Shown here: piece by piece, positions 34,166 to 36,796 of the stretch
How the letters are laid out: each line of letters starts with the position of its first letter
Position numbering within the stretch: the stretch's first letter is position 1
NCBI GenBank assembly: GCA_010405405.1
Contig: MU004240.1
Span: forward strand, 634,316 to 698,315
Source: Microthyrium microscopicum
Taxonomy: Eukaryota
Direction of reading: 5' to 3'
DNA length: 64,000 nucleotides
Program-made: the position numbers and the translations under genes
Notes under the pieces: model-generated
Databases searched by the model: none
The model's input: the letters and a program-made list of their open reading frames with translations, nothing else
What the model was told of the DNA's origin: nothing

Positions 34166-35090
34166 ATGAAGGTCATCATTGTTACGGGGGCCTCGAGAGG
34201 TATGCTAGACCGAAATCATCGAACTATATCACAGTTTCTGGATGCTGATTGAGTTGAACAGGCATCGGCCGAGCAGTCGCCAAGTTCCTCCTCGATAAGA
34301 AATGCAAAGTAGTAGTCGCAGCTAGAGACGGTAATGCTCTGGATCAGCTGCGACAAGACTACCCAGATAACGCCTTAGTCGTCGTCGCAGACTTCAGTGA
34401 TCTAAAAGTTGGCCAAGAGGTGGTTAACGCCGCCATAAAAACCTGGGGGAGGCTCGACGGCATTGTAATCAATCATGGTCAGCTAGCACCAGTCAACAGA
34501 GTTGGAAATACAACAGCAGAGCAATGGAGACAAGCATTCGATGTCAATTTCTTTTCGGCTATATCACTGGTATTGATTCTACATCATTATCTACTGCATC
34601 TCGTACTAATCCGACTCAAGGTTCAAGCTGCTCTTCCTGCTTTACGAGAAAGATCGGGGAAGATCATATTCACCTCCTCTGGGGCAGCACTTAATGCATA
34701 CGCAGCATGGGGTCCGTACGGCGCAAGCAAAGCAGCGATAAACCATTTGACAAAAACTTTGAGCGTCGAGGAACCTAAAGTAATCACCGTGGCTATTCGA
34801 CCAGGTACCGTCAATACCGAAATGCAACGAGAAATCCGGGAGGAATATAACGAAGAAATGGACGATAAGGATCTCCAGAAATTCGCAAATCTTAAGGCAG
34901 ATGGCGAGCTTCTACGGCCGGAACAACCTGGCCACGTTATTGCTAAGCTGGTCTTGGAGGCGCCACTGAACTTCAGCGGCAAGTTCTACTCGTAAGTATA
35001 TTCCGCGCAAGAGTCATCTGACCATAACATTACGTTGCTAACTTGAGCAGATGGAACGACGGTGAGCTGGAAAATTTTCAGGATGATTAG
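34166..35090 (+). CDS. Short-chain dehydrogenase/reductase (sepiapterin/benzil reductase-like); 3 introns
   Basis: MKVIIVTGASRG|IG, INHG, IIFTSSGAA, catalytic YGASK, IRPGTVNT. Confidence 0.9.
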
Positions 35091-35169
35091 TCGGCATCTG
35101 AAAATGGCCTATTCGACATTAGCCTTTGATCATAGAGATGAATTTGTACGAGTCAACATTGAAATCAAA

Positions 35170-35257
35170 CAATCAGCCGAAAGATGAAAAGTCTCGATAT
35201 ATTTATTTCCACATAGTGTTTTCGGTTTTAGCATGGAATATTTTTTGTCATCATGAA
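35170..35257 (-). ncRNA. Box C/D snoRNA 3, dual guide: 18S Am796 (snR53-like) and 25S Am807 (snR39/snR59-like)
   Basis: C box ATGATGA 35254-35248. D' guide TATTCCATGCTAA complements 18S UUAGCAUGGAAUA; D guide CATCTTTCGG-CTGA complements 25S CCGAAAGAUG. The +5 rule hits the known methylated A in both. Confidence 0.85.
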
Positions 35258-35393
35258 GAGTGGGCATGGGATAGATCTGATTTGCGTACCTTTTACATTC
35301 ACTTCGGTGCTGAAGAATTCTCTAGGAGCACCTACATCTGTAATCAGCCAAAGGCATTCTGATGGATGCATGGTGTTGTAGGTTGAGGGAAAT

Positions 35394-35476
35394 GGGTTCA
35401 GGTTATCGAATCATATTTTTTTGCTCCACATTGATTGTTCGGCATTTGATAGTACAAAAAGTTTGTTCATCAGGGT
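35394..35476 (-). ncRNA. Box C/D snoRNA 2, guide to 18S U122 (yeast numbering; equivalent of human Um121)
   Basis: C box TGATGA 35472-35467, D' CCGA 35442-35439, C' ATGTGGA, D CTGA 35401-35398. The 12-nt guide GTACTATCAAAT complements fungal 18S AUUUGAUAGUAC. Confidence 0.78.
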
Positions 35477-35691
35477 ATCGAGTATCGCTTTCGTCCATGA
35501 CTTACCGTCTACACAGCAGAATGCGACCCGGCATAGTGTTATCCCCATCATGATGATGGGAGACCCGAGTCTACATAGCAAAATAAGTTCCAGCACCCTT
35601 CATGGTCCAGCCATAGTCCAGAGTCCTACTCGAAGAACAGTTAGCCTCAATCTTAGACGTATGTGGTACGAGCAGTGAATGGTTGAAGGTT

Positions 35692-35771
35692 AAATCAGGA
35701 ACTCCGTTTGGCGTGGAGTGTCGTTCAGCACGAAAATACTATGATAGGGGCGACAACAAGCTCATCATGAT
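35692..35771 (-). ncRNA. Box C/D snoRNA 1, snR60/U80-like guide (25S Gm908, yeast numbering)
   Basis: C box ATGATGA 35768-35762; D box CTGA 35698-35695; C'-like GTGCTGA. Guide TCGCCCCTAT is complementary to conserved LSU AUAGGGGCGA; D' is degenerate. Confidence 0.7.
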
Positions 35772-36186
35772 AACTTGAAATAGTGAATGAAGGAGGCTGT
35801 TCAACTTACTTGGATAGTCCAGGGTGAGACGCGAAGAGACTGGCAATGGAAGGTTGTTGAACGTGTGAAAGTATTTGGTGAGAAGGATGTAGTGCGGTGA
35901 AGGAAATTTTGAGAAAAGGTTTGGCAAAGATAATCTCGCCAAGCCGCTAATAGGTCACAGCGCCCCCTAGTCCATGTTACTTCCCCCCAACAGCATGTCT
36001 TTACCGTTCCACCCCTCAAACATATAAGATGCTGCCTCCTTCTAACATCCACCTCTTTTCAAGATGACAAAATTACACCCAAACTCAACATTCCTCTCTA
36101 CTTCATACTCGCAGCAAACCTATCACCTACCAAATATCTGAGCGCGCCGCTGAGAGCTAGCAGTCTTTGCGCAAACAACTATCACC

Positions 36187-36796
36187 ATGTCAGATCGCGA
36201 GTTCGGAGGTCAGTAAAGCTCAAATGATCTGTTTAGGCAATACTAACATTCAATAGGTGCCGATGACTTGTCTCTCCCGAAAGGTACGCAACACCTGACA
36301 CGCGTTGATGCGCGCTCTCACCTCAAACCGACCTCACTAACCACACCCTCTTGATAGCGACCGTACAGAAGATTATCCAGGAGATATTAGCTGCCGATGG
36401 CGACGCCAGTGTCGCCTTTAGTAAGGAGTCGCGCGATCTGCTTATCGAGTGCTGCGTCGAGTTTGTCACATTGATCTCATCCGAGGCCAACGAGATAGCC
36501 GAGAAGGAAGCAAAGAAGACAATCGCATGCGAACATGTCACAGCAGCCTTGCAGACATTGGGATACCCCGACTATGTACCTGAGATAGACAAAGTGGCGA
36601 GAGAGCATAAGCAGCAGCAAGCCGTAGGTTTCAATCACCCAGCAGCCCATTTCTAGACACTAACAGCAATTAGAGCCGCGAGAAAAAACAGACCAAGATG
36701 GAGAAGAGCGGGTTGACGGAGGAGCAATTGATTGCGCAACAACAGGAACTGTTCAATCAGGCTAACGACAAGTTTGCCCACGTCGCCGCAGACTAA
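36187..36796 (+). CDS. NCB2: Negative cofactor 2 beta subunit (Dr1), histone fold; 3 introns, two very short first exons
   Basis: MSDREFG|GADDLSLPK|ATVQKII...FSKESRDLLIECCVEFVTLISSEANEIAEKEAKKTIACEHV...LIAQQQELF. Confidence 0.95.

Follow-up and report, generated by a model that had tools for sequence, protein, structure and literature searches.

A probable intronic counterpart of the yeast snR67-snR53 snoRNA cluster, carried by a spliced non-coding host gene of Microthyrium microscopicum

In this work, we describe a gene found on the minus strand of a 64,000-nucleotide stretch of Microthyrium microscopicum DNA (contig MU004240.1 of assembly GCA_010405405.1, positions 634,316 to 698,315; hereafter the window, whose own numbering is used throughout). 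The region, 35090-35930, is very probably a non-coding host gene of small nucleolar RNAs (snoRNAs), transcribed by RNA polymerase II, spliced, of the UHG/gas5 kind, and corresponding to an intronic Pezizomycotina version of the yeast snR67-snR53 cluster, with an extra snoRNA inserted between the two. Host genes of this sort are well described, and the present one is an ordinary example; the middle snoRNA, sno2, is the sole element that may add to present knowledge, since it predicts methylation of a nucleotide of 18S ribosomal RNA (rRNA), U122, known to be modified in human and plants and not in S. cerevisiae. If so interpreted, an annotation gap is filled by a real expressed gene, and four rRNA methylation guides are assigned in a fungus whose snoRNAs are probably unannotated.

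The host transcript

To define the transcript, contigs of one public run (X1, from one study; its record only guesses "RNA?") were aligned to 34500-36700. Seven joints were found: three on the minus strand, seen as CT..AC on the plus strand, and four plus-strand GT..AG joints, which are introns of the neighboring genes (one in the SDR gene, three in NCB2). As introns of both neighboring coding genes are also joined, the run consists of spliced cDNA. Three minus-strand GT..AG introns are spliced out of one transcript, and one contig bears all three joints. The resulting model, all on the minus strand, is as follows.

Host exon 1, 35810..35905, minus strand: contig precedes the joint at 35809; 5' end approximate, 35905 being the upper edge of the last covered bin
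Intron 1, 35626..35809, minus strand, 184 nt: joint 35624>35809, skips 184, CT..AC, shorter side 27 letters
Host exon 2, 35506..35625, minus strand, 120 nt: contig piece 35504-35624 between two joints
Intron 2, 35332..35505, minus strand, 174 nt: joint 35329>35504, skips 174, CT..AC, shorter side 41 letters
Host exon 3, 35290..35331, minus strand, 42 nt: 41 letters between two joints
Intron 3, 35109..35289, minus strand, 181 nt: joint 35107>35289, skips 181, CT..AC, shorter side 41 letters
Host exon 4, 34991..35108, minus strand: colinear contig; 3' end approximate; antisense to the last SDR exon and intron

At the 5' side, contig depth is 9.9 in the bin 35832-35905 and none in the bins covering 35906-36053. 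Bins over the snoRNA bodies (35166-35239, 35388-35461 and 35684-35757) are without contig cover, from which no inference is drawn.

Donors read GTAAGT in introns 1 and 2 and GTACGC in intron 3; branch-like sites CTAAC, CTGAT and CTAAT lie at 16, 13 and 11 nt, respectively, from TAG acceptors. An initial annotation, made from the sequence, had placed the junctions at 35809/35626, 35505/35338 and 35289/35109: the outer two coincide exactly with the cDNA joints, while the acceptor of the middle one is seen 6 nt further on, where a TAG occupies 35334-35332. The end of this intron (35339-35332, minus strand) contains two AGs 6 nt apart, CAG at 35338 and TAG at 35332, and the contigs use the distal one only. 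Alternative 3' splice sites have been reported in snoRNA hosts of N. crassa, in the part of that survey available to us (Liu 2009, PMC2780460).

The longest ATG-initiated open reading frame (ORF) of the spliced model encodes 52 amino acids, across exons 2-4, and is not conserved, its best tblastn match in the 11 related loci described below having an E value of 0.19. The same annotation had proposed a spliced minus-strand non-coding transcript with one box C/D unit per intron, and this is what the three joints and the short ORF bear out. Features of UHG-like hosts are thus present: the transcript is spliced, each of its introns carries one snoRNA, its ORF is not conserved, and conservation is lower in the exons than in the snoRNAs.

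The snoRNA units

Each intron contains one unit with a C box close to its 5' end and a D box close to its 3' end.

sno1, 35692..35773 (ends approximate), minus strand: snR67/CD_26-like; C box AUGAUGA at 35768-35762, D box CUGA at 35698-35695
sno1 D' guide, 35753-35744, minus strand: UCGCCCCUAU, followed by a degenerate D' box CAUA at 35743-35740
sno2, 35395..35477, minus strand: middle box C/D unit; C box CUGAUGA at 35473-35467, D box CUGA at 35401-35398
sno2 D' guide, 35455-35443, minus strand: GUACUAUCAAAUG, followed by D' box CCGA at 35442-35439
sno3, 35170..35259, minus strand: snR53/CD_11-like double-guide unit; C box AUGAUGA at 35254-35248, D box CUGA at 35176-35173
sno3 D' guide, 35240-35228, minus strand: UAUUCCAUGCUAA, with D' box CCGA at 35225-35222
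sno3 D guide, 35191-35177, minus strand: CUUUUCAUCUUUCGG, directly 5' of the D box at 35176-35173

From C to D box the units span about 74-82 nt, within the 60-100 nt range expected of box C/D snoRNAs. Their placement within the introns is regular: in sno1, sno2 and sno3, respectively, the C box starts 41, 32 and 35 nt from the donor, and the D box ends 69, 66 and 64 nt from the acceptor. In each of the three introns, 53 nt separate the D-box end from the branch-like A. Such a spacing is known to favor splicing-coupled assembly of intronic box C/D snoRNPs, the mammalian optimum being a snoRNA placed about 50 nt upstream of the branch point. Similar regular spacing characterizes the intronic snoRNAs of N. 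crassa, according to the consulted part of the survey (Liu 2009, PMC2780460).

The Rfam comparison proposed in the initial annotation gave a divided answer: it yielded no match at gathering level, while, at E values up to 10 over 34900-36200, 10 out of 10 matches were minus-strand box C/D families falling on the three units. The best of them, snR67 (RF01177) on sno1, scored 25.7 bits (E 0.0099), below the gathering score of 55. These weak matches share guide strings with the units, namely GUUGUCGCCCC for snR67, CAUCUUUCGGCUGA for Z196/R39/R59, and CCAUGCUAA for U6-53. The U6-53 match carrying CCAUGCUAA (14.8 bits, E 4.9) is the only hint of a U6 target for the sno3 D' guide; the U6 segment UUAGCAUGG is the putative pairing region for a snR53-type guide.

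In sno1, a small hairpin is found upstream of the D box (35722-35702, minus strand), with loop (U)AGCCAAAC; a hairpin occupies the same place in the related loci L056-L064. One compensatory change distinguishes the stem of the window (CUCC/GGAG) from that of most relatives (GUCC/GGAC). The hairpin may explain why the D-side element of sno1 has no rRNA target. Judging by complementarity, its loop CCAAA could pair with the UUUGG located just 5' of the 25S duplex formed by the D' guide.

Pairing of the guides with rRNA

For the evaluation of targets, prokaryote assemblies were scanned for a published 18S primer, which returned at least 53 loci (L001-L053). One of these, L016, is a Pezizomycotina-like contaminant containing a complete 18S gene and the first ~940 nt of 25S; L030 and L047 are plant-like ribosomal DNA (rDNA). 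A primer pattern for the large subunit, used to retrieve further 25S sequence, gave nothing in viral contigs and nothing in 9 of 10 contaminated assemblies; its one match, L065, adds a plant-like 25S 3' part. Pairing was scanned without gaps, and the base facing the fifth guide nucleotide, counted upstream from D or D', was taken as the target. The following duplexes were found.

sno1 D' guide (box CAUA, degenerate): 10 bp with 25S AUAGGGGCGA, G908-equivalent
sno1 D' guide, second site (box UAUC): 9 bp with one G-U pair, GGGGCGGCA, the G2619 site, plant-like 25S only
sno2 D' guide (box CCGA): 13 bp (12 Watson-Crick and 1 G-U) with 18S UAUUUGAUAGUAC; the fifth position faces U121 in L016 and nucleotide 123 in plant-like 18S (L047)
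sno3 D' guide (box CCGA): 13 bp, all Watson-Crick, with 18S UUAGCAUGGAAUA; the fifth position faces A793 in L016
sno3 D guide (box CUGA): 15 bp with 25S UCGAAAGAUGAAAAG, at about position 360
sno3 D guide, second site (box CUGA): 11 bp with CCGAAAGAUGG, the S. cerevisiae A807 site, which reads GAAGG in L016

On L016, four guides therefore form duplexes of at least 10 bp that obey the fifth-position rule: the D' guides of sno1, sno2 and sno3, and the D guide of sno3. With the numbering set by Gm888 and Am897 in Table 1 of Liu and coworkers, G908 corresponds to the second base of GGGG, which faces the fifth guide nucleotide upstream of CAUA.

The strength of these pairings was evaluated by comparing each guide with 1000 shuffled versions of itself against L016, with at most one G-U pair allowed; a version admitting unlimited G-U pairs was too lax and was replaced. 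The observed duplex was reached by only one shuffle for the 13 bp of sno2 D', by one for the 13 bp of sno3 D', and by none for the 15 bp of sno3 D.

Three of the targets originally assigned to the cluster are recovered by this analysis: 25S G908 for sno1 (10 bp, in agreement with a published switch of the snR67/CD_26 D' guide), 18S U122 for sno2 (13 bp) and 18S A796 for the D' guide of sno3 (13 bp). The fourth, A807 for the D guide of sno3, was demoted to a secondary site, as it provides only 11 bp against 15 bp at 25S ~A360, and N. crassa CD11 is annotated with 26S-Am356. Some further matches were treated as due to chance: one of 12 bp between 18S and the 5' end of sno1, C box included, one of 13 bp between sno3 and a plant-like spacer, and an AU-rich one of 12 bp between sno3 and 18S.

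Conservation in related fungi

Eleven metagenome fungal loci were found by scanning contigs for the two sno3 guides separated by a gap. Some are nearly identical (L054, L055 and L062; L060 and L061), so that 8 distinct sequences are represented in total. A snR67-like unit, composed of C box, GUCGCCCC and D box, lies 245-509 nt upstream of the snR53-like one in 10 of the 11 by exact string, and in all of them once a one-base variant in L063 is counted. In the window and in 7 of the 8 distinct relatives, all but L054, the guide is of the CCCUAUC or CCUAUC type (CCCCUAUC), with pairing extended into AUAGGGG; the guide of L054, CCCCAAUC, resembles that of yeast.

A middle C/D unit is present between the two in 7 of the 11 loci (L054, L055, L062, L056, L058, L059 and L063). 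The remaining four (L057, L060, L061 and L064) lack it and contain two introns only. The 18S U122 guide of sno2 is exactly conserved over 12 nt, with the spacing found in the window, in L056 and L059, and differs in L054, L058 and L063. In L056 and L058 the middle unit also features a D element, GGUUCGAUUA, able to form 10-12 bp with 25S UAAUCGAACC, a site situated some 14 nt beyond the G908-equivalent in the 3' direction.

In the relatives, too, the units are flanked by donors and by CTAAC-like sites. When the host gene was divided into 13 parts, only sno1 (in 6 loci) and sno3 (in 11) matched the relatives at E < 0.01; at this threshold none of the 4 exon parts and none of the 6 intron flanks matched the 11 loci, nor did sno2, whose conserved core is only 12 nt long. 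It had been reasoned beforehand that units not conserved within conserved flanks would speak against a snoRNA host; the opposite pattern was found, with sno1 and sno3 matching the relatives, and exons and intron flanks failing to do so.

Gene order is conserved too. The SDR gene is found downstream, in convergent orientation, in 10 of the 11 loci, L063 having just 291 nt of flank on that side. Upstream, 9 of the 11 have NCB2 on the opposite strand, none being found in L058 and L059; synteny with NCB2 was among the checks proposed in the initial annotation. From the end of the aligned main SDR exon (34992 in the window) to the start of the snR53-type guide there are 181-451 nt in the relatives. 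This NCB2-host-SDR microsynteny persists down to 46-60% SDR identity, so that the block can conveniently serve as an anchor when the cluster is sought in other Pezizomycotina.

Relation to known snoRNA clusters and families

In yeast, snR67-snR53 is described as one of five polycistronic clusters, as far as the accessible part of the report goes (bioRxiv 10.1101/352906), so that the combination of guides found here, initially regarded as foreign to known S. cerevisiae clusters, does have a published counterpart. The window and S. cerevisiae share the same two guide families, in the same 5'-3' order, within a single transcription unit: a snR67-type unit with GUCGCCCC comes first, and a snR53-type unit with a D' guide to 18S A796 follows. 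The same order is kept in all 11 related loci. By the guide definitions, sno1 falls into snR67/CD_26, having GUCGCCCC in D' position (10 bp at the G908 site against 9 bp at the G2619 site), and sno3 falls into snR53/CD_11, with D' directed to the 18S A796-equivalent and D to 25S ~360. Since these two units fit the two families, and snR67-snR53 is a yeast polycistron, the locus is regarded as an intronic orthologue of the yeast cluster.

The differences are equally clear. Yeast snR67 and snR53 are released from an unspliced precursor by endonuclease cuts, whereas here each snoRNA sits in its own spliced intron, and one extra snoRNA lies in between. Moreover, the snR67-type D' guide of the window fits G908, not G2619, and a second guide, directed to 25S ~A360, is present in the snR53-type unit. 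If the orthology holds, one ancient unit exists in two forms, the yeast polycistron and this intronic host gene. No information on the snR67-snR53 cluster or on a Pezizomycotina promoter motif was found in PMC3596301 and PMC4138321.

Both departures in guide specificity have precedents in filamentous fungi. Within the part of the study at hand, the D' target of snR67/CD_26 is given as 25S-2619 across Dikarya, but as the 25S-908 equivalent in Dothideo-, Eurotio- and Leotiomycetes (Canzler 2018, PMC5824354); sno1 shares the latter target. Internally, sno1 differs from the snR67/CD_26 units of the relatives. The same source assigns to CD_11, in all Pezizomycotina, D-side targets at N. crassa 25S-359 (mean minimum free energy -21 kcal/mol) and 25S-790 (-11.5 kcal/mol), the former being by far the stronger of the two (Canzler 2018, PMC5824354). 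In N. crassa, CD11 is listed as intronic, with targets 18S-Am793 (D', 13/0, homologue snR53), U6-Am47 (D') and 26S-Am356 (D, 15/0), at least in the portion seen (Liu 2009, PMC2780460), and the 13-bp and 15-bp duplexes of sno3 equal these.

The architecture is likewise familiar. The excerpts consulted of the N. crassa survey report 45 of 55 C/D snoRNAs as intronic, six snoRNA clusters, five of which conserved with yeast, and hosts of the UHG type, considered non-coding, whose ORFs measure 159-267 bp (Liu 2009, PMC2780460). These hosts, as the present one, are spliced, contain one snoRNA per intron and have short ORFs only. Mammalian UHG and GAS5 also combine non-coding, poorly conserved exons with one box C/D snoRNA per intron; the introns and exons of the fungal host are, in comparison, much shorter.

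By analogy with such genes, the host introns would be spliced and debranched, each unit being protected by Snu13, Nop56, Nop58 and fibrillarin, in an assembly presumably coupled to splicing. Exonucleases would then trim each intronic unit to a snoRNA of ~80-90 nt, and the exons would be disposable. The rRNA nucleotide that pairs with a guide five positions upstream of D or D' is expected to be 2'-O-methylated by fibrillarin. The sites so predicted are the 25S G908-equivalent for sno1, 18S U121/U122 for sno2, and 18S A793/A796 together with 25S ~A356-360 for sno3.

sno2 and the 18S U122 site

The nucleotide targeted by sno2 is homologous to one methylated in human and plants, corresponding to position 123 in plant-like 18S. 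Arabidopsis 18S Um123 is equated with human Um121, and no yeast site is given, in the sections of the reports that were available (PMC8583080, PMC11542601). For the human site the guide is SNORD4 (Z17), and for the plant site At1gCDbox51.1; sno2 shows no detectable sequence relation to either, and no Rfam match to such a family was found at E values up to 10. Table 1 of the N. crassa survey, as far as seen, contains no guide for the 18S U119-122 region, the U122 site included, and annotates Nc CD26 with a U2 target (Liu 2009, PMC2780460); similarly, no guide for the U122 site appears in the accessible Table 1 of the A. fumigatus survey (PMC2377427). A literature search for 18S Um119-122 or the U121/U122 site returned only a prefix of "18S-Um1227"; the supplement of Canzler 2018 may list the family.

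We therefore propose, tentatively and as something more doubtful than probable, that sno2 represents a Pezizomycotina box C/D family outside the published N. crassa and A. fumigatus catalogues, guiding Um at 18S U122 (S. cerevisiae numbering). If this were true, the ancient Um121 (human) or Um123 (plant) site would survive in filamentous fungi, having been lost only in the yeast lineage, and the sno2 intron would have been inserted into an older snR67-snR53 unit and later lost in some lineages, as suggested by its absence from 4 of the 11 loci.

Alternative explanations

Various observations weigh against the interpretation of the region as an intronic snR67-snR53 host. The mature snoRNAs, of ~85 nt, are predictions from the intronic units, and the transcript evidence comes from one run merely guessed to be "RNA?". 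In the whole window Rfam gives zero matches at gathering level, no unit reaching the gathering score, and snR53 (RF00338) is not listed for sno3 even at E up to 10 over 34900-36200. Targets were scored on the contaminant fungal rDNA L016 and on the plant-like L047 and L065, not on the rRNA and U6 of M. microscopicum itself; the G2619 site was scored on plant-like 25S only. The sno1 D' duplex is only 10 bp long, is reached by 52 of 1000 shuffles, and is followed by the degenerate D' box CAUA; for the D-side elements of sno1 and sno2, pairing with L016 is no better than chance (406 and 506 of 1000 shuffles, respectively). The C box of sno2, CUGAUGA, starts with C and not with a purine, and the sno2 D element (35415-35402, minus strand) has 3 mismatches at 25S UAAUCGAACC; comparison with the relatives suggests that a second, 25S target of sno2 may have been lost lineage-specifically in the window. 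Finally, conservation of the sno3 guides in the 11 loci is partly by construction, the scan pattern having demanded both.

Some of these features would be expected if one or more units were decaying, non-functional snoRNA copies, sno2 being the likeliest candidate and sno1 the next. This we consider unlikely, though less so than the other alternatives. The non-purine start of the sno2 C box, the loss of the 25S pairing seen in L056 and L058, the absence of the middle unit from 4 of 11 loci and the divergence of its D' guide in L054, L058 and L063 are all compatible with decay, as is the sequence GUGCUGA found in sno1 where the relatives keep a conserved UGGUGAU. However, sno2 retains its whole 13-bp D' guide, 12 nt of which recur unchanged in L056 and L059; UGAUGA and CUGA are kept in all C and D boxes, and the distance of 53 nt between D box and branch site is the same in the three introns.

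The other two alternatives concern the transcript as a whole. Its main role might be antisense regulation of the SDR gene, overlapped by the last exon, the snoRNAs being a secondary cargo. The coding sequence (CDS) of the SDR gene ends at 35090, only 18 nt from the acceptor of intron 3, one cDNA contig passes from the SDR gene straight into host exons, and the convergent SDR gene is kept in 10 of the 11 relatives, the aligned end of its main exon lying 181-451 nt from the start of the snR53-type guide. Yet unstranded contigs cannot show a regulatory effect, tight tail-to-tail packing is common in compact fungal genomes, and the sequence of exon 4 is not conserved, conservation being confined to the snoRNA units; a chiefly antisense function thus appears very improbable. 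Still more remote, and hardly to be expected, is a short protein-coding or micropeptide gene in which the snoRNA-like units are incidental. The 52-amino acid ORF across exons 2-4 would be its product, but its best tblastn E value in the 11 loci is 0.19, no exon matches the relatives while two snoRNA units do, and ORFs of similar size (159-267 bp) in N. crassa hosts are regarded as non-coding in the portion of the survey seen (Liu 2009, PMC2780460).

Neighboring genes and other observations

The minus strand was read over 34700-36400, where two plus-strand genes flank the host gene. The SDR protein matches adh_short (E 1.5e-25), and the NCB2-like protein is a histone-fold protein (CBFD_NFYB_HMF, E 8e-15). 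Transcription of the host gene from the minus strand is thus divergent from NCB2, as had been proposed, and convergent and overlapping with the 3' end of the SDR gene, whose stop codon occupies 35088-35090, the region here assigned to the host gene (35090-35930) beginning right behind the SDR CDS. A 1823-nt contig is colinear with the genome over 34620-35107, starting from the SDR gene, and then contains all three minus-strand joints; as the contigs are unstranded, it shows only a tail-to-tail overlap of the last host exon with the SDR 3' end.

The SDR gene features an extra intron at 34992-35050 (plus strand; 59 nt, GTAAGT...CTAAC...CAG), followed by a last exon of 40 nt, which ends at 35090 on the plus strand and encodes WNDGELENFQDD*. 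A plain listing of ORFs terminates the SDR protein too early, at 34995. The same W(N/D)D(G/K)EL motif is recognizable in L057 and L060. The cDNA contig retains the intron at 34992-35050, no joint being found there.

A last observation concerns the rDNA sequences used for target evaluation. A single 18S primer string occurs in at least 53 contigs whose assemblies bear a bacterial or archaeal label, several of these contigs being fungal-like or plant-like, which means that many prokaryote genome records carry eukaryotic rDNA contamination. The alignment of one such contig, L035 (about 8 kb, cyanobacterial assembly), to the plant-like L030 is broken up into numerous blocks; this suggests that both the 18S and the 25S gene of a contaminant eukaryote contain insertions, which may be group I introns.

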